Assembly: GCA_001938485.1 (NCBI GenBank) | Contig: MQRK01240728.1 | Coordinates: forward strand, 25,036 to 82,450 | Source of the DNA: Girardia tigrina | Taxonomy: Eukaryota | Length of the DNA: 57,415 bases | Reading direction: 5' to 3' | Shown here: piece by piece, positions 1,874-38,349 of the stretch | How positions within the stretch are numbered: position 1 is the stretch's first letter | How the letters are laid out: every line of letters begins with the position of its first letter | Notes under the pieces: generated by a model | What the model saw: the letters and a program-made list of their open reading frames with translations, nothing else | Database searches by the model: none | What the model was told of the DNA's origin: nothing | Program-made: the position numbers and the translations under genes

Positions 1874-2217
1874 TAGATATCGGGTTGAAGGACCACAGTG
1901 AACTTACCAAAGATATTCATAGAAAATTAATAAAATGTTAATAAAAACATAAACAATAATTTGGTTATATTTTCGGTAATTTTTAATTTCAGCACTCTGC
2001 TTTAAAACGTCTCCACTTATTATAGTTTTTATAATTATAATTGATTATGAAAAATTATTATTTCAAGTGGTTTAAAAATTAATTTTAATGAGCCTCTTCA
2101 AAGTTTTTCATAAATTATATTATCATTATTATATTATATTATATAGATTATATTTTCTAAATTTTATATGAAAAAATAAAATAGAAAGAAATACACGATG
2201 GAATATTTTTAGATGAA

Positions 2218-3747
2218 ATGTCAAACATGATGAAAGAGAAATTGGATAAATTATATCAGTTGATGAACGATCAGCAAATATCCACGAAGAGTGAGATCAA
2301 TGAGGACTTCAAGTGTCTCCTTTGTAGAAGCCTTCTAAAAGACCCTTGTCAATCCGAGTGTGGATGCAACTTCTGTCAGACTTGCATTGACGGATACATC
2401 TTAGTCGGAAGCACCGGTTGTCCTGGAAATACAAAAGAATGTAAATCTTGCAACATATCAAATGTTGTTAAGGATCATAAGATGAATAAACAAATATCGA
2501 AGATTGTTGTTAAATGTCCTGTGGAAATGTGTTGTTATGAGTGTGAACTAATAAACATGGATGAGCACTTACAAAAGTGTATGGAAACTAGTGTGAATTG
2601 TATATTTGAGTGTATTGGATGCGACCGGGGACAAATTTCTGGGGAAAAGATAAAAGAACATTTGCAATTCGATCATACAATTCACAGCAAGTTGTTGATA
2701 GACTCTTTTATTAATATCAAAAATGAAATCGAATTGAAACACAATGAAGTTATTAAATTAAAAGAAAGTAATGTGAAGAAGAATAACGAAATCGCATTTC
2801 TTTTACGTGAGAATTCATCGATGAAACAAAATGTAAAGGAAATTGAGCATCAAATTGTATTATTAAAGCGCAACGATTTTTCGAGGATAAATGAAATAAA
2901 GGCTCTAAACAAAGAGGCTGAAGATAACAGAAGTAGATCTCAAGTGGTTACACAAATTGAAAAGGAAAATAAAAGAATAAATTTATTACTCAACGAAATG
3001 ATGGAGCGTAAAGAAGAGGAAATCGAAATCCGTAAACAAAACGAGAAAAAAACGGAAGCGGAGATAAAATGTTTGAAAAACCAGTTGGAATGTGCAAAGG
3101 GAGAAAAAGAAAAGGAAGTGAATGATTTAAAAGAAAAAGTCAAAAATTTGCATATTGAAGTTAAAGTATTGAAACAAAATGATACTCTAAAAACTAATGA
3201 AATCAGCTTATTAAAACAAGAAAACAAAACAATCAAAGCACAACTGGAAATATTAAAACAAAGTGACAATGAAAATAGAAAAAATAATCTATCATTAAAA
3301 CAATATATTGAAACTAATACCAAAGAAATTGAGTTAGTAAAACAAAATGAAAAGAAAATATCAAAATTTTTTGAGAAATTGAATAAAAACACCAAAGATA
3401 ACAGAAGCGACTTGAAGAGCTTGTCGGAAGAGAGTTCTCGCCTGAAAGAGATCGTCGAGTCGATCCGACTAACTATTCAGGCAGGCGGTTTTCCAATTCA
3501 AAACGTAAAACTCGAATGTTTCCATCAGAAATTTGAAAACACAGAGAAACCGGAAAATGAGAGGAAAATCGGAAGTAAACAAATGGATGAACAAATGAGT
3601 GAAGGGGGTTACGAAGAAAGGAATAGGAGAATAGTTGAACAAGTTGAGCCAAATACAGTCGGACGATTTACAAGAAATGTCATTTCCAAACAAAAATCAA
3701 AAGAGATTCAAAGGAAAATTAATTCTCTATCATATTTGCATCAACAA
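2218..3747 (+). CDS. TRAF-family protein, large exon (RING finger, TRAF-type Zn finger, long coiled coil)
   Basis: CLLCRSLLKDPCQSECGCNFCQTCI...CP RING; VKCPVEMCC..MDEHLQKC and CIFECIGC..IKEHL Zn-finger segments; about 250 aa of heptad-rich K/E/N sequence. Probable phase-0 donor GT at 3748. Confidence 0.85.
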
Positions 3748-4199
3748 GTTCTTTTAATTAATGTTTATTTTAAAAAATATTTAATTAATTAAATTTTTGT
3801 AAATAATAATATTGAGACATCTTAAAAGAGTTAGAGACATTAAATTTATTTCGACGGATCACCTGTCCTCATCAGATAAATTAATTCATGAAAAACACAT
3901 TGTAATCTTCTTGCATTATTTAAATATTTGTTATTTAAATAGACAAAAGGAAACGAGATTTGAAAAAATATATTATAGACAAAATCTATCGATTTAAACA
4001 ATCGATAAAAAAAATCATTATTTTTAATTTAATAATAATTAAAAATCATTATTTTTAATTCAACAAAAATTGAATTAAAAATAATTTATTGATGAAGTAA
4101 AGTTGTCACTTTACATATGCCCCTGTGGAAGAAGAGGAGTGTCCTGGCAAGTGAACGTCGGTTTGAGACGATCAATCGATATTGTTTTGTGTTGGTCGT

Positions 4200-6610
4200 T
4201 TATATCCAGAACGAAGGTCTTCATGTCTTCAGATCGGCGCAACACTTTATAAGGTCCTTCGTATGGTGATTTGAGAGAACCGATGATGTCCCATCTTAAC
4301 CAGACTTCCGTCTACGTTGATAATGCTGATGGAACAAAGATTTTTCGTGTCAGCTGTTTCTTTACAGCCGGACTTGTAAAGCCACGAATGGCTGTTTCTA
4401 TATCTTCTTTGGAAAAAGTCGATTGATTTTCACTGTCCAAGGTAATATCTCCCGGGAGGTAAGTGGAAGAGCTGTACAATTGTTGTGCCGGTGAGGCGTT
4501 TGATCCGGTTATCGTCGAGTTCCGCAGTCCGAGCAGTACAATTGGAAGATCGTGTGCCCACGATTGCTCTGCCGTACCCGAGTAGGTTTTGAGCGCGTTC
4601 TTTAGTGANNNNNNNNNNNNNNNNNNNNNNNNNNNNNNNNNNNNNNNNNNNNNNNNNNNNNNNNNNNNNNNNNNNNNNNNNNNNNNNCACGTTTCTTTGA
4701 AATGATTTGAGAAGAATTGTCTTCCTTGGTCAGTAATAACGATTTCTGGAGGACCGAATCGGCTGATCCACGTGGAAACGAAAGCTTTCGTTACGGCAGT
4801 GGCTGTAATGTCACGGATTGGAATTACTTCGGGCCAGGACGTGTGTCTATCAATAATTGTTAAAATGAATCGCTTACCGTCGACGCTGGGAAGTGGTCCG
4901 ACTATATCCATGTGAACGACTTTAAATCTTCCTCTATCTGGTAATNNNNNNNNNNNNNNNNNNNNNNNNNNNNNNNNNNNNNNNNNNNNNNNNNNACGTG
5001 TGTCTATCAATAATTGTTAAAATGAATCGCTTACCGTCGACGCTGGGAAGTGGTCCGACTATATCCATGTGAACGACTTTAAATCTTCCTCTATCTGGTA
5101 ATGAACCCAGCTTTACTTTAGTGTGCCTGGAGATTTTGTAGGCTTGGCATCTGTGGCACTCTCTTGTCCATCGTCGTATTTCGGACTTCATCTTAGGCCA
5201 AACGTATATGGAGCGGATGAGGTCGATTGTTTTGTTGGCGCCGACATGTGCAATTCCGTGGAGTCTGCAAAATTTACGGTGGCGAAACTTGACCGGCAAA
5301 ATTATTCTTTTCTTGTGATTGGTGAGGTCGATGAACAATCCATTCTCCGTTCTGACATTAAATCTATTCCCTGAGAGTAATATAATCTTCTCTTTTTGTT
5401 GCTCGTCTATGATATCGCTCTTTGAAAGTGTTAGGATCTCCATTTCATTCTCATCATTCTCGTCCATTCTAGAAAGAAAATCGGCCACAATATTTTATGT
5501 TCCTTTGCCAAATTGGATTTGAAAGGTGAATTGGTTGAGAAACTCAATATATCTCCATTGTCTGTTCGATGGATCCTTCATTGATTGAATGTAAAGAAGT
5601 GGCTTGTGATCGGTCAATATTTTGAAACTGGATCCTTCTAAATAATGCTTGAATTTCTTGACAGCCAGGTAAATCACGAGAAGCTCTCTGTCAAACGTCG
5701 AATATCTTTTCTCTACATTGTTCAATTTCCTTGAAAAAAATGCGATCGGTGCAAGCTTGGAATTGATTTCATGGTTGAGGCTTGCTCCAACAGCGATACC
5801 AGAAGCATCAGTGCAGAGAATGAGAGATTTATTCTCGTCAAATGGCTGCATGGTGGTGATCTCTTTCAATTTCTGTTTGATTGCATTGGTAGCTTCTCGT
5901 TGGGAGGTGTTGTATACAAGTTTTTGATTTCCTTTTGATGCAGTGAGAAGAGCATGCAGAGGTGCAATAATTTGTGACAAGTTGGGAATCATCCACTGGT
6001 AGAAAGTTGCTGCACCTAGAAATCCTCTAAGAGATTTTATGTTGTTCGGTTCTGGCATGTTAATTATATTATCAATCTTTTCTATGATAGGTTTAACGCC
6101 TTCTGCGGAGATGTTAAATCCCAGGAACCGAACTGTTGGGGAGCGAAATTTACATTTATCTATATTCATCTCCATGGAGGCCTCAGCTAGTAGATTCAGT
6201 ACTGTGTACAAGTGGTTCTCGTGGTCTTCTACATTGTCTGAAAAGATAATTATATCATCAATATAGGAACACGCGAAATCTTGACATCCATGGAGCAGGG
6301 CGTCCATGTGGGGTTGAAACATTTGGGCTGCGTTTCTTAGGCCGAATGGCATCGTAGTATACTCGAATAGTCCGAACGGTGTGACAATTGCCGTCTTTGC
6401 GATATCTTTTGTGTCAATCGGAATCTGGTGGAAAGCTTTCTTTAAGTCGAGGGTGGTATAAATCGTCTTCCCAGATATTCTGTCTAGGATGTCTGAGATT
6501 CTTGGCAAAGGGTACCGGTCCGGTTTTGTGACCGAATTCAGCATTCGGTAGTCTCCACAAGGTCGAAGGTACCGTCGGTCTTTTTTACCAAAACTAACGG
6601 GGAAGCCCAA
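4200..6610 (-). pseudogene. gypsy pol (RT, RNase H, integrase) with frameshift and premature stop
   Basis: RPCGDYRMLN, YIDDII, TDASG, YSTFDRELL, TDHKPL, H..AHVG...CHRCQ, VHMDIVGPLP, ITDQGRQF, YEGPY. Frameshift near 6570; in-frame stop at 5495-5497. Confidence 0.92.
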
Positions 6611-7870
6611 GGGCTTGTGCTTCTTCTGATCGTACCTTGGAGTAATAATTGATCAAATTCTGCTCTTACCGATCTCAAAGCGTGATTTGATAATTTTCTG
6701 ACACGCTGCGCGATAGGAGGACCGGTTGTTTCGATCCGGAACGTTTGATTGCTACTGAGCGCGGTACTGACGGTGGCTTGCAGGTTGACCTTGTTGGATC
6801 CCATCATAGTGAAGCTATCTGTAAAAATTTTGTTACGGCGACAATCAACCTTAATGTCTTCATGAGCCAGGAAATCGGAACCGAGAATCGCTCGTTGAGT
6901 GTCAGCGAGGATGAAACGCCAAGAAAACAGTTTGGGTGAACCGGCCAAACGGAAACTGATCGAGTGAGTTCCAGAGGTTGAAATTTCTTGACCATTTACT
7001 GAAACAAGCTTTTGAATTGCAGAAGTGCTGTCGGCTCTGAATTGTTTTGAAGGGAGGATGCTGACATCCGCACCCGTGTCGATCAGAAATTGGATGACTT
7101 GACTGTCGGAAACCGCTGGAACGGTGAAAATCGAAGATAATTGATCTGGTGGCTTGTCGAGGGTTGGAAGTACCGGAGTGATTCCAACCCTTAGTCTTTT
7201 CCCGAAGGATTCGGGGGGGCTCCAGGTGCACGGCTTTTGACATTTCTTAGCCGCTTGTCCATACCTTCGATGATAAAAACATAAACTAGAAACCTGTTGG
7301 CCAAGATTGATTTGCTTTTTGAGTTTATTGATTTCAGCGGTCAGGAGCGCGATTTCGGTGGCGTAGGATCCGGAATTTGAAATTGTCTCACTCGAATTGA
7401 TGGCAACTGGAACTTTGATATTCAACAGATCATCAGCTAAATATGCCAATTCGGTCAGCGAGAGTGCTTTTTGGATATTCAGGAGTCTTTGGACATCGGT
7501 CGGCATTGCACGAAAAAATGCGATCCGCAAAATATTGTCATCGCTGCTTGTGGCGCCCAGGCAACGGTAGTGTCGCTGCAGGATTCTCAGATATTCTGAG
7601 GGGCGGCGGTCGCCAAGATTGTTGTTGCTGAATATTTCATCGAAATGGACTGAGACTGGAACTTTGCGACTGTTGATAATCGCATGCCGAAGATCAGAGA
7701 ACGGTGTTGCGGAATTTGATTCGAAGAATTCTTGGAACTCCGTTAATATCTGAGGAGACAGATTCGCAGTAAGATGCAAAAATTTAGTCTGTTCCGTGGA
7801 GATGTTGGAAATTCGGAATATCGCATCGATTTGCTTGAATCAGAGCTCAATATTGTCGAAGATTGGAAGA
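6538..7870 (-). pseudogene. gypsy gag plus aspartic protease
   Basis: LPIF..EL*FKQID (W to TGA), LGDRRPSEYLR, CFYHRRYGQAAKKCQKPC, FLIDTGADVSILP, ILGSDFL. Confidence 0.9.
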
Positions 7871-11015: not shown

Positions 11016-11510
11016 AAATCAAGAACAGATCTGATGACAATCAATGAGCAGATTAGAGAATCGAGAAGAGAACTGGAGGATAAAGTAATCAAACTAGAAG
11101 AATATTTGGACATGAAAGAGAAATTAACGGTATGGGATATTGGTAGAATCCTAAGGAATTATCACAATGATTGGATGAACAGCTCTTATTTTTATTTAAG
11201 AAATAATCCTTACAAAATGGGCCTAAAGTTAGAGTATAGTAAATTAGAACTAAGGGTTCAGTTAGTGATCTTTTCCAGCGCAACTACCAAAGAGGTCAAT
11301 TGGCCCTTCAAAGCAAATGTAACAATCGCCGTCAAGGACAAATTCAACTCCAATTTAGCAATTTATGCAAGACGCTTCTGTGAAATCCAGAAGCCGGAAT
11401 TGAGTTCCTTTGAATCAAGCGATTTCTTCAAATTTAAGAAAGATAAAATGTTTTTTAAAGGGTTAACAACAGAATCGTTTTGTATTATAACGTGTGGATT
11501 CGAATTCTAA
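11016..11510 (+). CDS. TRAF gene, terminal exon with MATH/TRAF-C domain
   Basis: W..I, SSYFY...PYKMGLKL and NWPFKANVTI motifs typical of TRAF MATH domains; stop at 11508-11510; AATAAA near 11556. Confidence 0.8.
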   Translation, partial: KSRTDLMTINEQIRESRRELEDKVIKLEEYLDMKEKLTVWDIGRILRNYHNDWMNSSYFYLRNNPYKMGLKLEYSKLELRVQLVIFSSATTKEVNWPFKANVTIAVKDKFNSNLAIYARRFCEIQKPELSSFESSDFFKFKKDKMFFKGLTTESFCIITCGFEF

Positions 11511-18236: not shown

Positions 18237-18713
18237 TTATAGGAGAATCTTGAGCATGAACTTTTTTTCTAAATTAGCTACAATAATTTCCAACTGATTT
18301 AATCTTTTTATTTCATCACTTAATCGTTTTATTTCAGTATCAACATATTCTTTATTAACTATATGTTTGGGATTATCTGGTTTTTGGAGGCAACTCGCTT
18401 TTCCAGTAATTATTACATCAGTGGCAATTAATAATTTTTTAATTGTACATTCTTTTACAATACACTCTTTTTCAACTAAAAGGTTGTTTTCTACTTTTAG
18501 AATATTGTTTACAATTAAAAAATCTTTTTCCGCTTTTAGAATATTGTTTACAATTAACTCATTACCAATAATCAGATTATGTTTTACAGTTAAGTCAGTC
18601 ACAGAATCTCCAGTTTCATTAATATATCTTTTATCACAAATATTGACAACATCTGCACCAAGTCCATGTAAATCAGTTGATCCAATTTTATTTATAGGAA
18701 TATATGTACCCAT
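18237..18713 (-). CDS. Polinton/virus-like fibre-type ORF
   Basis: Repeated LIVNNILK beta-like units, P.NPKHIVNKEYVD motif (resembles xxNKxYVD of viral fibre proteins), C-terminal coiled coil; tandem with the protease gene. Confidence 0.5.
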   Translation of the reverse strand: MGTYIPINKIGSTDLHGLGADVVNICDKRYINETGDSVTDLTVKHNLIIGNELIVNNILKAEKDFLIVNNILKVENNLLVEKECIVKECTIKKLLIATDVIITGKASCLQKPDNPKHIVNKEYVDTEIKRLSDEIKRLNQLEIIVANLEKKFMLKILL

Positions 18714-18833
18714 TTTTATATACGTTAAAATAGAATAATTGGAATATGAGATTTGAAATAATTATAAAATAGAATATTATTAAAATAAAATAAAAAATAA
18801 AACAAATAAAATAAAATAATTATAGCAACCAGC

Positions 18834-19301
18834 TTATAATAATTCTTTAAAAGTCTCAAATAATTCAGAAACCACCTCATCAGGTTCGGCTTCGCCAAAG
18901 GTATCATTGCTACCGTTCCTGCTGCCATTTTCCAATTTATATAAAACATATAAACATAATTGTCCACAAATTCTTGATCCAAATGGTTGTACTTGGGTGG
19001 AATTATATTCTAAATTGGGAATCAATGAAAATTCTTTTATAGGCACAAGGCCAAAGGAGTCAAAATAATAAATCAAATTGTAGTGATATAAAATCCAATG
19101 AGTACCTTTTTGGTTGTCAGTTTGATAATTTGAAATTATGTTATCAATTATATTATCACTATTCAATTCATCAAGTTCATGTTCATTTCTCATTTTAATT
19201 TTAAAATCAAGATTTAATAATTTTCCAATTCGATATAAATCAAAATTAGTAGTAGTTCCTATTCCAAAAGTTTTTAAAAAATCTAAAATGTTGATATCCA
19301 T
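18834..19301 (-). CDS. Adenain-type cysteine protease of a Polinton/Maverick or adintovirus-like element
   Basis: GTHW, YYFDSFG and QVQ..GSRICGQLC give the H-D-Q-C catalytic arrangement of adenoviral/Polinton maturation proteases. Confidence 0.88.
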   Translation of the reverse strand: MDINILDFLKTFGIGTTTNFDLYRIGKLLNLDFKIKMRNEHELDELNSDNIIDNIISNYQTDNQKGTHWILYHYNLIYYFDSFGLVPIKEFSLIPNLEYNSTQVQPFGSRICGQLCLYVLYKLENGSRNGSNDTFGEAEPDEVVSELFETFKELL

Positions 19302-19764
19302 TTTTAATATACAAATTTAATTGAATAGTCAAAAAAATTTTAAATATAAAGAAAAAAACCTTTTGCAAAATGTGTAAAAATATTATTTATTAAAATCTCC
19401 AACAAAAAGTTAGAAAAAAATACTCATATTAACCACAAAAAATTGAAAAAGTATATATTAAAAAAAGTATCTAAATCTATATGAAAAAAGTTTTTTTCAA
19501 TAGTATTTTTTATGCAAAATGTTCATAAACATTATTTAATTAAAATCTCAAACAAAAAGTTAAAAAAATATTCATATTAACCACTAAAATTAAAATATAT
19601 ACAGTTTTAAAAAAAACATATTGCTTATTAATTTAACAGTAATTTAAGCTAATTTTTTTAGAGATTTCATTTTTATGTGATTATATTTCAATTCAAACTT
19701 TATTATTTATACATTTTTGTGAATTTTATCTATTATTAATTCATATTTTATCCAAACTACTTAA

Positions 19765-23185: not shown

Positions 23186-23689
23186 TTAATATTCAAAAAT
23201 TGCCTTTCTTTTCATAAAATATATATATATATATATATGTATATATATTTCTTCATATTAACGTTTGTTTTAATATTTTGATCGTTCATATTATTGCGGT
23301 AACTCCGTAGATGTTTTTAAATGAATTAGCGATAATAGTGTAATGAATTGAAAAATAAAATTATTCACGACTATCGATTTTTATCGTTATTGAAATAAAA
23401 TTAAATGTAAACTGAATCTCATCCACCGAAATCTAATCGGAGAATTTTAGAGAAATCTAAAGTCAATCACAGGAACATAAAGCCGACGAAAATTGTAATG
23501 TTATTTGACAAGCGATTCATCAATTATCAGAGTACGGGAAGCACTGATTCTTCCTTGATATCGGCAAAGTCGGCTCGAACGACTTTAAAATCGAAGTTAT
23601 TGAAGAAAATCCAAGAATCTCTAATATCTCCGTCAATTTCCGAGTCAATAACCAAAGAAGAAAGATAAATGATAGAATTCTTCCTGTGG

Positions 23690-23866
23690 CAGGTGCACCC
23701 AGAAACTGGAATCTGTGGCAAAGCCATGCCGTGAATGATGCGTTTGAGCGGATTGCAAGTCAGGCCAGTCGATTGGTGCATTACAACAAGGAGTCGACGA
23801 TCACGAGCAGGGAGATCCAGACGGGAGTGAGATTGCTGTTGCCGGGAGAGTTGGCTAAGAACGCCG
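23690..23866 (+). pseudogene. H2B: Histone H2B internal fragment with frameshifting deletion
   Basis: [13 protein letters not shown], then (after a deletion) [45 protein letters not shown]. Confidence 0.9.
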
Positions 23867-24479
23867 CAAGCCGAAAAAGAAATACGGCCCTCTTTAGGGT
23901 CAAAATTTGTGATTGGACAGTAAAACTGACTAAAGCTGATAAAATCAAATTGGCTTTATTCGACCACAAAAGTATGATATATGTTTATTTATATTTACAT
24001 AATAATAAATTAAATAATCATAATAATAATAATGATAAAGATTATAATAAATTAAATGATAATAATAATAAAAATAATATTAAAAAACATGATGACAACG
24101 ATCTTCCTCTCCCCATTTGACGGCAAATAATATCAAAATAAGCTTCCACTGCGCTGCTGCCGCAACAACCGGTCGCAATACCGGCCACCATTGAACCCGG
24201 GACAACCCAGGTAAAAATAATGTTTGGGAGACTTGATTTGCCCAATCTTTCAGCCATTAAGCACAATACTCCTCTTAAAACTATAAATGGGTTTTAAATT
24301 TTGATTTTGAATTGAGTTTTTTTATTTATATTTCGATTTTTTATTTAAATTTGAAACCTGATTTTAGTTCGAAATAATTTATTTTGAAATTAGTTATATA
24401 ACTTTAAAACATCGTCTTGTGTTTATTTTGGTAAACTCTATTTTTATTTTCCAGTGACTCGATACAAATATTGATATTC

Positions 24480-31330: not shown

Positions 31331-31598
31331 ATGAATCTAGAAGAGAGTCCTGCACAACCACCAAAAAACATACCACGAGAAGAGATGTTCCGAGAAGTTG
31401 AAGCGTTACTCGAAGAGGCCATACTTACAACCGCTGAGCACTACAAATGCGCAGAACATAGGAATCGACTAGTCAGGGATATACGCCAGATGAAGAATGT
31501 GGGACCAACCAGTATCCACACCCTACAATTATGGCAAGGCAAAGTCGAGAGCGCCAGGAAGAAGGTAGACGAGCAACTGGGAATTCGAATACGAAACA
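31331..31598 (+). CDS. Small helical ORF C (3' end replaced by a formin fragment)
   Basis: TTCTAGc before the ATG; PREEMFREVEALLEEA motif. Confidence 0.5.
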
Positions 31599-31925
31599 AA
31601 CAATGGTCTGAATCTTCTTCTGGATGTTTTGAGCACTCTTACTGAATCTCCTATCAATTGCGACATTTGCCTTGTATGTATTATGGCTTTTGTCATTGTC
31701 GGATTTGGATTCTTCAGAGTTTTAGAAAACGATAGAGCACTTCTATTGATCGCCAAATGTTTCAAGCCACAGATCCAGGATACGATGTTCTATGCAGTAG
31801 AATTGTTGAGGACGTTTGTAGTTTATAAAGAATATAGCTATCAGAAAGTGCTTAATGCGTTATCGAATGCGGCGAAAATAAATAATTACGCTAATCGGTT
31901 TTATCCGTTAATTGAATCTTTTATC
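31599..31925 (+). pseudogene. Diaphanous-related formin GBD/FH3 (DID) exon fragment
   Basis: GLNLLLDVL...CIMAF...FG...VLENDRALLLIAKCFKPQIQDTMFYAVELL...QKVLNALS..A......RFYPLIESF parallels DIAPH GLASLLDIL...CLKAFMNNKFG..MLE....ILLLVRAMDPAVPNMM..AAKLL...ERVLEAMT...RFQPLLDGL (recalled). Confidence 0.75.
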
Positions 31926-32000
31926 CGTTAATCTATTGAATCAAGACCATTTTCACAACCACGTCTATTGTCCCTATAGAATAATAATTATTATTATTAT

Positions 32001-32240: not shown

Positions 32241-32402
32241 TACTGACAGAACCGTCTCGATGCAGGCTATCCAGATTGACCACGTCCTTAAGTGGATTCA
32301 TTCACGTCCGTCCAAAATATTTCATTTTAATCATAGTATACATTGAGCGTTACACACACACATATATATATATACATATATAAATAATTATTATAAAAAC
32401 TT
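32241..32402 (+). repeat. Dispersed repeat, also at 37356-37513
   Basis: TACTGACAGAAC.GTCTCGATGCAGGCTATCCAGATTGACCACG...ATTATAAAAACTT is present twice; related AT-rich blocks at ~32700, ~33000 and ~37590. Confidence 0.85.
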
Positions 32403-32598
32403 TGTCATTGTCGGATTTGGATTCTTCAGTTTTAGAAAACGATAAAGCACTTATATTGATCGCCAAATGTTTGAAGCCACAGATCCCGGATACGATGTTC
32501 TATGCAGTAGAATTGTTGAGGACGTTTGTAGTTTATAAAGAAGATAGATATCAGAAAGTGCTCAATGCGTTATCGAATGTGGAGAAAATAAATAAATA
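32401..32598 (+). pseudogene. Second, partial copy of the diaphanous fragment
   Basis: High nucleotide identity to ~31690-31888, with a 2-bp indel. Confidence 0.75.
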
Positions 32599-34800
32599 CA
32601 CTCATCTGTTTGCATTGAGCAGTATGCATTGAGCGTTACATACACACACACATATATATATATATATATATGTAAATAAAATATTTAGATAAATTTAGAT
32701 ATAAAATTTTTAGATAAATATTATTAATAAAAAATTGATTTATAAATGAAAACTTGATATTATTTATTAATAACGAAAATTTGTAATTTATAATAAATTG
32801 ATTTTCAGCAATATAATTAGTAAATTTGTGATACAAGTCGTCATTTATCAAGAAAAATAGCATTTAAGTAGTAGCAATCGAATAGTTGTCAATATTCGAT
32901 AATAATTTCGAGAAGGCCCTATATGTTTTACTTTATTACGGTTATACTTTATTAAGGTTAAAAATAAAGCTTCCGTTACTTAAATTTTCACAAATAAAAT
33001 TTTTAGATAAATATTATTATTAAAAAATTGATTTGTTGGGGTTCATATAAATATAATAAAATTTTTTTACTTTTATTTTTTTGAAGTTATTATTTTATTA
33101 TTTTATTTTTCTGAATTTTGTATTTTATGGTGTAAATATTGAATGAATTTTAACATTATATTTTTGTTCTTGTGAATTTTTAAATATGTTATTTTGCCCT
33201 TGACTTGTGTTTATTTATATGTTATTTATAATTTAATTTAAAATAAAACTAAATTTTACATACATTATTTATTCAATTGTATTATTTTTATATTTCTTTA
33301 CGTACTATGCGTTCTCGTCACGCATAGTGCGTCGTCATTTTTTCTTTCTCACGGAGTTGTTTACGGCCACACATTCATTACGCGCATTCTTATCAATGGC
33401 CACGCGATTTCTCACGCGATTTTATTTTTCTCATACACATTTTGGTTTCTTCTCACGCGTGTTTTGTTTGCGTTTTCGTCAGCTTAAGCCACGCGATTTT
33501 GAAATTCTTATTGTTAACGCAGTTATATAAGCGCAATCAAGAAGTAGCAAAGCGCACAAAGTTAATATTCGCACAGGTAGGAGATGGATGTTCTTAAAGG
33601 CACAAAATTAATATTCGCACAGATTTTGCACCGAATTATCGACGAATTTCAGTACTTGCGAAGAGACCATTTCTGAATTGCTGAGGAGGACAAATTTTGC
33701 TTCGTGGCCAAAAGAGATTAATTTTTATATCGAAGAGAACTGTTGAGTCAAACCGACTTATTTTGTTATTGCTGGTATTGAGGGAGAATCAATTAACATC
33801 GCTGTCAAGGAGACTAAATCTTTTTATCGGTGAGGGTCCACTCAATTATTGTTATTTCTTTTACTAAAGTAATATATTTTAAAATTTATAATCTTAATTG
33901 TAATATATTAAATTAATAATTTTTATTTATAATTTTAAAATCCTTGATAACTGGAGAACGGTGATTCCCAGTTACATAAAATCATCACAAAACACACAGG
34001 GACATTGTTTCATATTTTCTTTTAACAAATTGTATTGTGTACAAATTTTTTATAAATATTTTAATAAATATTTTATAAAAAAAGTCTTGTGTTATTTGAT
34101 TATTTGTGATATTTATTTCATTGATTAAATTTATAATTAATACAATCCTTTTAATTTACACAAATTGATTGACTGGAGTAAATTTTAAACAATTTTTGGA
34201 GTTATTTTATTATAGTTCTCCTTTGTTACGACAATCGGTAAATATCTATTTGACCCTTCGTACGTAACAAAGTTGGTGCCGCGAACCGGGACGAAAAATT
34301 CCTTGGTCGCGCATATAAAAATTGAATTCTCTCTAAAGTTTAAAGTCATTTAAAATTATCGAAATTTGATAAAGTGATAAATTAAATTGAAGTATTAAAT
34401 AAATAAATTGAAAAGAGAATATTAATTAATATTAATAAATTGAAAAAGAATATTAATTGATCTAAATTTGAAAGAGAATATTAATTGAAAAGAGAATATT
34501 GATTAAAGTTAATATTATTGATTGTCCCAATTGAGCTAGGTCTTGAGCATATTAATTTTTACAAGTTTCAGATGCATATTGAGGTTAAGTTTTGATTAAG
34601 GTATCAAACAGTCAGTCTTCTTGGAGGAATCGTTGATTGTGATTTATTTTTATTGAATTTTTTTGTGTTGTCTCAATTAATTTTGATAATCTTATTGATT
34701 TCATTGTGTTGTTTGAAATTATTTTGAATATTGAATTGATTTTTATTGAATTAATTTTTGCATATTTTCTATATTCGTGCAACGCACCTTCACAAAACAT

Positions 34801-34968
34801 ATGACACATAATAAGAAAAAACAAGATAACCAGGAAAACATTGAAAATAATTCAAGAGATAATAAACCTACATTAGGGCGAAAAATGACAAAAAGTTTTG
34901 ATTATATTCCACTGGATCCCTACAACGGGAAACCAGAGCATTTAGACAAATACTTTGAGAAATATTGA
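34801..34968 (+). pseudogene. gag N-terminal stub
   Basis: IPLDPYNGKPEHLDKYFEKY resembles the L..(F/Y)xG....L..F...(F/Y) start of Ty3/gypsy capsid; first ORF after the PBS. Confidence 0.5.
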
Positions 34969-36055
34969 AATCACTCGTACCAATTTGGTAACGGAAGAAC
35001 AAATTGCTACGAAACATCCACTTGGCTATCGCATAACCGAAGAGAATACGATATTTTCCAGATTAGTGATGATCGACGCATCATCAAACATTTTTTCTTT
35101 TATTACACAATCAAATAAATACTCATTTAAGATATGTGATAAAACGACATGTAAGATAGCACCTTTTTATCAATTTGCACGTACAGAGATAGATCTCACT
35201 ATTCCTTCTGAGATAAGAATCAAAGCCTATCAACATAACCAATTGCAATTACAATTTATCATAAAGATTATCCAGATACATGACAATTACATTAAATCAA
35301 TATGCAACGATCAGAAAATCTATAAAAATTTAACATTTTACATAACACATGAGTGTAAGCTTTCATTATTATTTTCTGTTTTTAATTCCACTTCCGAAGA
35401 TGATAAGTTTCAGGCCGACCCGGCGCAATATCACATCAGTTTTACATTTATTCCTTACGCCTTGTTAACTGATATAGGTATTAATCTTGATTATTCCTTT
35501 CATTTTTGTTTTGAAATATGTACACCACAATTTGATGAACAATTTAACACAATATCCTTCAGAAACACAACCACATTATTGAACTTTCTAATTTATCAGT
35601 CATCTGACTTAGTATTATCATTAAAATTGACATGGACATACAACAAATAATCATTTATACCAGGTAAAGACATGCATGTGCAGCAGATTGAGTATGCCCC
35701 TTGGAAGATACTCATTATTTCGAATGATATTTTTGATAAATTTGATGTATATCAATATTCTATCCAACTTAAGAAACAACACATAAACATGTATACACCC
35801 CAAATAACTCGATCTACCTTATTACCAATCAGTAAAGGGCTAATATACAATATAACGCCCAGTCAACAAGAGGAATTACATAACTGGCCTTTTATCATGT
35901 ATGGTATAGGTGTTTTTGGATTGATTTTCTTATTAATATTCTCTTTAATTAAAAGTTGTAAAGAATATCAGAAAAAGATAATGACTTTAAACTTATATCG
36001 TACATCCTTCGGGCAATACCTGCCAGGGGTGTACGTAAACGTAACACAGGTATAA
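34955..36055 (+). pseudogene. env-like type I membrane glycoprotein, 5'-truncated, one premature stop
   Basis: ORFs 34955-35650 and 35672-36055 share a frame. Cys-containing ectodomain with sequons NLT, NST, NTT and NIT; TM segment WPFIMYGIGVFGLIFLLIFSLI; short tail ending YVNVTQV. Confidence 0.55.
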
Positions 36056-36170
36056 AATTTCAAATCGAAAATAACAAGACAAATTAAAGTCTATAATTTT
36101 AAATTATCATATTTGCTTATTTTTAATTATTAGTATACAACCATTCACCGACTATTAATTCCCGTTTAGA

Positions 36171-37360
36171 ATGTTCAAGAAACCCAATTCCAAGATGCCT
36201 CGCTTCGATGTGACGAGGTATCATCAATATACTCCTGTCGATGAGCGGAGGAATATGTGCAGCAATTCGAGGACAGCTCAATTGCCTTCGCTTTACGGGT
36301 TAAGGAAACGCGTAGTAGAGGCAAATAACCAGTACATGGTCACACCTGTCCATTTACGAGATAAGAGAACCCAGAGAAATCTTTCTGAGGTTCAACGCCT
36401 ACAACAAGTTGAGGATGAGAAACATGCCCTGATAGAAGATATGAATATATGAATATATGGGACAAGCCGTACCACTCCCTTCAGATTGGCACCCTTCCGC
36501 ACCAATACAGTTAGAGGTGACCAAATTATTCCAGTTTCAAGTAACGCCGCACTACTACCCAAATATGTTTTACCTATGGATGCAATATGGATTGCCTTGG
36601 AATAAACCCATTACTAAGACGAAATTAGAGTACCCGGCGAAATACCCGAACAAATTGGTATATAATACCTACAACAAAAGGATGGTTATCCTCAAACGCA
36701 GTGTCCCCGGACGAATGACCATATCGGATATCATGGGAGTGTATAGACACTCATCTCCCACAACTTTTAATCGACCTTTCTACAGGGTCTTAGCTGTATA
36801 TATCCATGCAGCATCGACACCTCTTCAGATTACAGACGGGTCAACCGCTATTAAATTGCCGGAAAAGAAATCCATCGAAATTCAAGTCTTCCGGGTGAAG
36901 GACATCGATGAAATCGAGCAATTAAACGACATCAGTCTCAACATCAGACGACGTGGGAATATTCGCTGTAGAGTTCTTCCTACAGGATGATCTCTCTAAT
37001 CCGTTCCTCGAAAACTCCTATCTGATCATCGAATCAGATGTGAACATATCGGACACCATTATCAAACAAAGATGTTCATTCCTCAGAAAACCCCTGACTG
37101 AAAAGGAAATACAAAACCGAATCCGTGTCACGGAGAGAGAATTTGCCGTAGGTACAGACAAGAAAGACCATTTAGTTTCAGTCGCGTTCCTAAATTATCA
37201 CGGCGCGGTCCTCATGCACACCTTGGTGCATCCAAGATCACGTATCCATGACTTTGTTACCTTTTGTCATGGAATTAAGGATTCCGACGTACGTGACGCA
37301 ATGGACGAGTATCACGCGATTGCCGAAATCCACCGACAATTACAAGGGAATATACTACTG
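36171..37360 (+). pseudogene. Frameshifted ORF ending in a REX4/ISG20-like DEDDh 3'-5' exonuclease domain (truncated)
   Basis: EREFAVG....LVSVAFLNYHGAVLMHTLVHPRSRIHDFVTFCHGI..SDVRDA......AEI...LQGNIL parallels REX4 DCEMVG..LARVSIVN..G..LYD..V.P...V.DYRT..SGI...L..A......EV...L.GRILVGH (recalled). Confidence 0.7.
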
Positions 37361-38349
37361 ACAGAACTGTCTCGATGCAGGCTATCCAGATTGACCACGT
37401 CCTTAAGTGGATTCATTCATGTCCATCCAAAATATTTCATTTTAATCATAGTATGCATTGAGCGTTAAACACACATATATATGTACATATATAAATAATT
37501 ATTATAAAAACTTACTATTATTTTTATTTTTGGAAAATACTTTATTAAGGTTATCAATAAAGCTTTCATTACTTAAATTTTCACCGCTAAAATTTTTAGA
37601 TAAATATTATTAACAAAAAATTAATTTATAAATGAAAACTTGATATTATTTATTAATAACGAAAATTCTCCATAAGATAAATAACGATTCAAAGATTTCA
37701 AAGTTAAATAAAATTACAAAAGTTCAAAATAAATTTATCGTCTCTCAAAAATACTACCAATAAACTATGATCACAAATCGATTTAATCTATTTCCACTTT
37801 CAAATTCGCACAAACATTAAAAATACCACTAAATGAAACAAAAATCACAAAGCAATCGACTCAATGTCACAAAAAATTCTACTTAGTTGTAACAAAACCA
37901 ATGACATCGATCCAATTCGACAATCGACCAATCAAAACGCCGAACAATGACATTCATTTTTATTTTGATGAGTCATTTCATTGGTAATGAACATTTTTGT
38001 AATAATAATCATGAATTTAATTCAGATTCACTTCAACCTTTATTTTATATATTTTTAAATTTAATACTTTTTTATTTATAGATATAATAATTTATATAAA
38101 AAGACAAGCAATAAAATTTTCAGTCATTGTCATTTAGTTACTACTGAACTGAATGACAATTCTAGATAAAAGACATAGAAAGATAGAGATCAAGCGGTTT
38201 TGCGGTGTAAATAATGATAATAATTTAAATATAATATTTTTTAAAAATCGAATCCCGAACATAATCTTTCTTTACATAAAATCTCTAAATTTCGTCAACG
38301 TACATTTGTCGCTTTGACTAAAGATTAAGTACATAATTACACACGTACA

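Follow-up and report, generated by a model that had tools for sequence, protein, structure and literature searches.

The stretch of Girardia tigrina DNA analysed here (57,415 nucleotides, contig MQRK01240728.1, positions 25,036 to 82,450 of the forward strand; hereafter 'the window') carries one member of a multi-copy Ty3/gypsy family of long terminal repeat (LTR) elements, a copy that is dead and has lost a large internal part. The family likely is an envelope-carrying, smaller relative of the planarian Burro elements, and the two proteins encoded at its 3′ end, namely a transmembrane (TM) protein with predicted Ig/FN3-like repeats and an ISG20-type exonuclease, likely modulate the host; as a whole, this reading is considered probable. 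The backbone of the element is already published (it is Burro-like), and no description of the 3′ cassette was found in the literature covered, to which the original Burro paper does not belong. What accessory genes do in invertebrate retroelements is for the most part unexplained. DEDDh nucleases of the ISG20 clan are known in hosts as restriction factors; here such a nuclease is kept by thousands of element copies under a constraint equal to that on reverse transcriptase (RT), and lineages have exchanged it as a unit. In an animal in which RNA interference (RNAi) is tractable, this offers a direct way to study how a retroelement with an envelope deals with RNA defence. A second host-interaction gene open to testing is that of the receptor-like membrane protein, whose T-x-V tail is invariant. 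There is also a practical warning, namely that a TM glycoprotein lying 3′ of pol need not be an envelope protein (env).

Structure of the window copy

The features of the element, including the predicted splice sites of its second open reading frame (ORF2), are as follows.

33034–34269, + strand: 5′ LTR, 1,236 bp, TGTT...AACA, with a TATA-like box at 33524; termini read
33829–33834, + strand: predicted splice donor G/GTGAG, inside the LTR
34274–34291, + strand: primer-binding site (PBS), complement of the 3′ end of tRNA-Phe(GAA) plus CCA
34801–34968, + strand: gag stub, ATG at 34801, 55 codons; 89% (tblastn) to gag amino acids (aa) 1–72 of copy L053
34954–34961, + strand: deletion junction, 8-bp microhomology, out of frame; gag-side copy and TM-side copies compared
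34955–36055, + strand: TM protein, C-terminal 366 codons, predicted Ig/FN3-like repeats 2–3; stop at 35648–35650
36140–36170, + strand: predicted intron end, pyrimidine-rich, AG at 36168–36169, directly before the ORF2 ATG
36171–37111, + strand: N-terminal part of ORF2, helical leader and predicted double-stranded beta-helix (prolyl-4-hydroxylase-like, ~36450–37000); frameshifts near 36448 and 36934
37112–37355, + strand: first half of the ORF2 DEDDh exonuclease, ISG20-type; ExoI degenerate here; ExoII, ExoIII, acidic tail and 3′ LTR lost
37356–37640, + strand: truncating repeat, ~285 bp, high-copy, unrelated to the element; 94% to a copy at 32241–32402 in the left flank

A first-pass annotation, made from the letters of the stretch alone, had described an LTR terminus followed by a tRNA PBS, and both are there. 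The LTR, which ends in ...TAACA at 34269, is bigger than was then reported; its extent was recognised because the same sequence sits 3′ of ORF2 in 12 of 14 ORF2-bearing stretches. The PBS is the exact complement of the tRNA-Phe 3′ end, and the matching end occurs on four truncated tRNA-Phe copies in genome G000. A 15-mer of the PBS has 193 exact matches against none for the reversed control, and neither ARAGORN nor Rfam found a full tRNA at the PBS matches. The gag-like stub likewise stands, as does the loss of pol placed at ~34960: the junction lies at 34954–34961, and L094 has pol in an open frame. The deletion (~9.6 kb, a size estimated from the coordinates of L094 and L021) took the rest of gag, a Bcl-2-like domain, the fusion env, the protease–RT–RNase H–integrase (PR-RT-RH-IN) block, the ankyrin region, and the signal and first repeat of the TM protein. 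In the genomic deletion derivatives (the window copy and L002), the breakpoints are microhomologies, not splice sites.

At its 3′ side the element is cut at 37355/6 by the ~285-bp repeat (2105 first-look candidates), which is indeed what removed ExoII and ExoIII, as had been proposed. Neither the remainder of ORF2 nor the 3′ LTR turned up elsewhere in the window or on the two flanking contig stretches (L180 and L181). Within 32241–33034, the window LTR is inserted near the end of a ~285-bp repeat, and a 94%-identical copy of that repeat truncates the right side (37356–37640); repeat copies on both sides of the element suggest a local duplication plus deletion.

Architecture of the family

DNA searches of G000 gave first-look candidates for ORF2 (137), the TM gene (826), the 5′ part (650) and the gag–pol interval (1,331), and 40 of each were scored. 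In the longer copies, ORF1 encodes in this order gag (one CCHC knuckle seen), a weak Bcl-2-like domain, a fusion glycoprotein, PR-RT-RH-IN (an order seen in the open frame of L094), ankyrin repeats, a signal, an ectodomain, a TM segment and a tail ending in T-x-V; it is followed by a separate ORF2 of ~700 aa and then by the LTR. The helical domain after gag ends in a BH2-like W-I-x-x-x-G-G-W motif, and a signal sequence then precedes the fusion glycoprotein. Pfam Bcl-2 is matched in three of seven members (best E 0.0043, under the cut-off), and Bcl-xL and Bfl-1 in the PDB at E 0.2–1. The fusion glycoprotein is of the chuvirus/gB type (PF24664, 290 bits for a cut-off of 27) and lies between gag and protease, in frame with the latter; the open frames of L077 and L084 show env in frame between the BCL2-like motif and protease, and PF24664-type env is found too in families C, D and E. 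The Ank_2 match in the open frame falls just short of its threshold (E 9.4e-6, 26.5 bits versus a cut-off of 27.3), PF12796 was matched on P0007, and no ankyrin was seen in family E. Seven open frames gave no Pfam match at E ≤ 0.5 to BIR, MATH, SUMO-like or dUTPase domains.

Five open stretches, taken from different copies, overlap one another at 89–95% identity and together reach from gag to the tail, which indicates that ORF1 is one frame of ~3,600 aa; its hydrophobic segments number four (signal, env TM, signal, TM). The whole frame was not found open on one contig of this gapped assembly. Copies with both LTRs measure 14.1–17.4 kb between LTR ends, and their LTR-pair identities (99.9% over 714 bp, 98.9%, 98.4% and 90.3%) are in part so high that some insertions must be recent. 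The target-site duplication is an exact 4 bp in C240086, and 3 of 4 bases agree in two family-C copies.

No polypurine tract precedes the 3′ LTR in any of nine copies checked in families A–D (L021, L018, L024, L030, L183, L189, L120, L191 and L192): the 20 nucleotides upstream hold 5–7 purines and 7–13 C, with a C-rich run. This absence is read as a variant, since other features place the element in Ty3/gypsy; in A and B, base pairing of the C-rich run with the G-run that opens the LTR would be possible. The PBS of family C, found after the 5′ LTR in L190 and L127, is unlike that of A and B, so that the primer has apparently been switched within the clade; presumably it resembles a tRNA-Lys site. 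In L002/L048 (G000:C182751), the LTR, PBS, ORF2 and downstream LTR are retained and all of ORF1 is lost at a microhomology; this derivative may carry the nuclease gene as a non-autonomous element.

ORF2 and its exonuclease

The three abutting frames noticed from 36171 onwards are present and represent one ORF2 with two frameshifts, near 36448 and 36934. As judged from its flanking signals, ORF2 is likely made from a spliced RNA, in agreement with the first-pass proposal of an acceptor just before the ATG. This acceptor-like site is conserved: it reads YAG followed by ATG or A-ATG in families A–D and is altered in 3 of the 11 copies compared (L070, L132, and the L149/L156-type spacing). The donor pattern has ten distinct contexts, comprising seven family LTR copies with CG/GTGAGG (window included), two variant LTRs and one unrelated sequence. 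Comparison of positions 36132–37355, a stretch that leaves the donor side outside, with four presumed RNA runs gave three joints, none of them at the acceptor.

The claim that a REX4/ISG20-type DEDDh exonuclease travels with the element proved right. The domain has a DnaQ fold, is closest by sequence to ISG20/ISG20L2 (E 3e-15) and was found in five lineages; the window piece scores 19 bits against PF00929, under the cut-off of 24, and open copies exceed it with 25.7–37.6 bits. The ExoI reading ERE is correct for the window copy and confined to it, for the 28 other stretches covering this position all have D. Across copies, ExoI D-x-E retains D in 28/28 and E in 27/28, and ExoIII H-x4-D retains H in 18/18 and D in 16/17; ExoII has Glu in 20 of 21 and Asp in one, a conservative DEEDh variant. 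ORF2 thus keeps the catalytic residues D-E-E-H-D, and is a predicted 3′–5′ nuclease. Because dS is saturated between families, ratios were taken within A and B only; there, dN/dS of ORF2 is 0.05–0.07, a constraint as strong as that on RT. A distant ORF2 fragment (P0008, E 8e-5) appears degenerate at the ExoI position.

The N-domain appears, in fold models, to be prolyl-hydroxylase-like and to lack the iron triad (H-x-D...H): with positions inferred from strand order, the first His is present in 0/29, Asp in 28/29, and the second His is replaced, mostly by Asn. It has no PDB sequence match at E ≤ 10 and three matches among 1.84 billion representatives, all of ORF2 type. An HH comparison with the MATH exon of the window itself gave a probability of 0.4, and no MATH structure is among the top 50 matches listed, which are dominated by the exonuclease.

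Such an enzyme might counter small-RNA silencing directly by trimming or degrading piRNAs or siRNAs, along the lines suggested by the first-pass annotation. The small-RNA nuclease SDN1 does share the clan (E 1.4e-7); ISG20/ISG20L2, however, outscore it by ~8 orders of magnitude, and the 2′-O-methylated, PIWI-bound 3′ ends usually resist such enzymes. As far as the available text of the sources goes, Burro elements are PIWI-silenced in planarians (PMC8532177), and a silencing role has been entertained for the DEDDy ORFs of rotifers (PMC5408684). All in all, direct attack on small RNAs is held to be unlikely, and the removal of element RNA by ORF2, outlined below, is preferred.

The accessory membrane protein

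The single TM frame with one stop (34955–36055), its Cys- and N-glycan-bearing ectodomain, TM helix and short tail were all recovered as first described. In the window this frame has seven Cys, five N-x-S/T sites (the last in the tail), a TM helix at 35894–35950 and a tail ending in YVNVTQV; the T-x-V end is one that we take to be a class I PDZ-type motif. Its designation as an env-like glycoprotein was given up. There is no Pfam fusogen match to the window protein and no R-x-K/R-R site, the family C protein has a single repeat with an ectodomain of ~150 aa, and the bona fide fusogen (PF24664) is elsewhere in the frame, between gag and protease. The TM protein is instead predicted to be of type I with 1–3 Ig/FN3-like repeats, receptor-like rather than fusogenic; the fold model of the ectodomain is weak, and its top structural matches are FN3/Ig. 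A homologue search gave one match among 3,257 candidates, a family member, and the ESM Atlas no usable match.

A role in entry may nevertheless be considered, either as an envelope or as a receptor-binding partner of the gB-type fusogen. The TM protein is glycosylated, comes from the same translation product as the fusogen and evolves under purifying selection, and gB-class fusogens often need partner proteins. The small family C ectodomain and the presence of a dedicated fusogen argue against its being a fusogen itself, and in comparisons between families the ectodomain has diverged much more than the tail (dN 0.74–0.91 versus 0.34). An entry function is thus rated as quite unlikely, although the protein may serve in attachment, and a decoy acting at the cell surface is favoured.

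Lineages and exchange of ORF2

Further lineages were found in G000 with divergent ORF2 homologues from the protein database as probes. The TM-plus-ORF2 cassette recurs in five lineages whose RTs are 49–96% identical. Family C (RT ~75% to A) has the IN-ankyrin-TM arrangement in 10 of 14 contigs, three others being too short and one gapped; the TM tail is present in 8/8 contigs of family D; and in family E (RT ~50–55%) pol pieces lie upstream in 4/8 contigs and a signal–ectodomain–TM segment is present. The first-pass annotation had worried that the exonuclease ORF might never accompany element parts elsewhere, or that a single-copy host gene was involved; in fact many loci have ORF2 together with pol, LTRs and the TM gene, and the genome has multiple copies of ORF2 and of the TM gene alike.

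These data bear on the idea that both genes are passively captured host fragments (a REXO4/ISG20-like exon and a receptor exon) with no function in the element. Both proteins resemble host protein classes, but the genes are intronless, hold a fixed position in five lineages down to ~50% RT identity, show dN/dS of 0.05–0.2 and keep the catalytic residues; moreover, the ten database matches of the exonuclease profile are all proteins of the same ORF2 type. Passive capture is therefore highly improbable and largely refuted, in favour of genes that serve the element.

Between A and B, RT is 91–96% identical (lower for one frameshifted stretch) and the TM protein 90–95%, whereas ORF2 is only 60–66% identical, from which it is concluded that ORF2 was swapped as a module. 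Since the RT and ORF2 trees rest on partial stretches and have a weak root or none, they were used for the A/B contrast only.

The swap also weighs on the view that ORF2 serves replication, by trimming element RNA, the tRNA primer or the plus-strand primer, or by proofreading a genome of 14–17 kb. ORF2 is as constrained as RT, and the C-rich tract in the polypurine position, seen in 9/9 copies checked, means that priming may be unusual; the available text of 10.1101/2021.02.01.429129 links such enzymes (nidovirus ExoN) to large RNA genomes. Yet ORF2 is separate, outside the polyprotein, and its exchange between lineages of closely similar RT is more readily expected of a host-facing gene than of a core enzyme. 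A replicative role is accordingly judged improbable, and a host-facing nuclease is retained.

Proposed mechanism

The ORF1 polyprotein would thread the endoplasmic reticulum twice, so that signal peptidase would release two lumenal ectodomains, with gag and pol staying cytosolic. The gB-type protein would be the fusogen, and the TM protein may serve on the cell surface as a decoy in adhesion or signalling, through its conserved tyrosine-rich tail with the T-x-V end. ORF2 would be translated from an RNA in which the LTR donor (33829/30) is spliced to the acceptor (36169/70); its dioxygenase-like N-domain, likely catalytically dead, might bind nucleic acid and pass the 3′ ends on to the exonuclease. 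Our tentative proposal, to which we give somewhat less than an even chance, is that ORF2 removes element RNA that has gone astray, or by-products of replication, before they come to the notice of host RNAi or innate sensors. It is put first because of the analogy with arenavirus ExoN and because the module swap suggests a host-facing gene; the weight left after this proposal and the small-RNA and replication readings goes to other uses of ORF2, for example the exclusion of rival elements.

A bolder picture, speculative and somewhat less probable again, is that of a whole clade of infectious planarian Ty3/gypsy viruses with accessory genes like those of a large animal virus. They would have a Bcl-2 mimic and an ankyrin protein; their twice-threaded polyprotein would release an FN3 decoy receptor whose tail binds PDZ domains; and a pseudo-dioxygenase–ISG20 nuclease, made by splicing and open to swapping, would complete the set. 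A host antiviral enzyme class would here have been turned to counter-defence, possibly tied to plus-strand priming that dispenses with a polypurine tract.

Surroundings of the element

A second, unrelated Ty3/gypsy element occupies 4312–7839 (− strand), its RT region being ~37% identical to this family. Just left of the LTR is a duplicated formin GTPase-binding-domain exon (31569–31931 and 32384–32632, + strand; 93% DNA identity). A RING/coiled-coil ORF and a MATH exon (2185–3792 and 11016–11510, + strand) belong to TRAF-like host genes with weak Pfam matches, and a histone H2B-like fragment (PF00125, 25.5 bits) lies inside an unrelated frame at 23548–24120 (+ strand). Two ORFs at 18237–19316 (− strand) have no Pfam match; the one at 18834–19316 carries an H-W...D-S-F-G...Q...C-G pattern, which we take to be of the adenovirus/Polinton protease type, possibly a Polinton remnant.

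Comparison with known systems

The closest known relatives are Burro/GYPSM1, planarian giant Ty3/gypsy elements of >30 kb with an ORF1 of 4,873–5,140 aa and high copy number, whose env matches mononegavirus fusion proteins (PMC6431247, available text, for this and the following). Shared with Burro are the single polyprotein with gag, the in-frame position of env behind a BCL2-like motif (weakly matched here) and ahead of protease, PR-RT-RH-IN, ankyrin and high copy number. The present family differs in its length (14–17 kb), its ORF1 (~3,600 aa), the one CCHC knuckle seen and the lack of BIR, MATH, SUMO-like or dUTPase Pfam matches in the scanned frames, and the Burro section of that text mentions neither a C-terminal membrane protein nor an exonuclease ORF. 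Since the size and ORF length of Burro are not reached, the family is called Burro-like, not Burro. In the literature as far as covered, which leaves aside the original 2018 Burro description and Repbase, where the cassette may be drawn, no LTR element is described with an ISG20-type exonuclease or an FN3 membrane protein.

Gene order and env class are common to the gB-type GAG-ENV-POL errantiviruses of Platyhelminthes (Chary and Hayashi, PMC13524379); among six Schmidtea rows, the env of Smed_errantivirus_3 is most like that of this family, by eye and not by computation. The main text of that paper has no mention of exonuclease, ankyrin or bcl, and accessory genes are not described there.

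Extra DEDDy ORFs had been invoked by the first-pass annotation for both bdelloid rotifers and Cer1. The rotifer part holds according to PMC5408684, and Cer1 could not be confirmed ('Cer1' is absent from the text of PMC5408684 and 'DEDD' from that of PMC10309623). The Juno/Vesta LTR elements have a DEDDy ORF3, DEDD changed to DEED and no bona fide env; they share with our family an extra 3′ ORF with a DnaQ-like exonuclease and the same DEED change. Their enzyme is, however, of the DEDDy/RNase D type rather than DEDDh/ISG20, and no fused beta-helix domain is mentioned in the available text (PMC5408684).

The arenavirus nucleoprotein ExoN, a DEDDh exonuclease encoded by a virus, reportedly suppresses innate signalling (10.1101/2021.02.01.429129, available text). 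It is a works-like analogue only, tied to ORF2 by no homology test and belonging to an RNA virus rather than a retroelement, and no zinc-finger motif was noted in the ORF2 alignment. Human ISG20/ISG20L2 (1wlj, 7yw5) are the best sequence match and among the best fold matches, with ExoI D-x-E and ExoIII H-x4-D in common; unlike them, ORF2 has Glu in ExoII, a fused N-domain and an acidic tail of ~220 aa, and is encoded by a mobile element.

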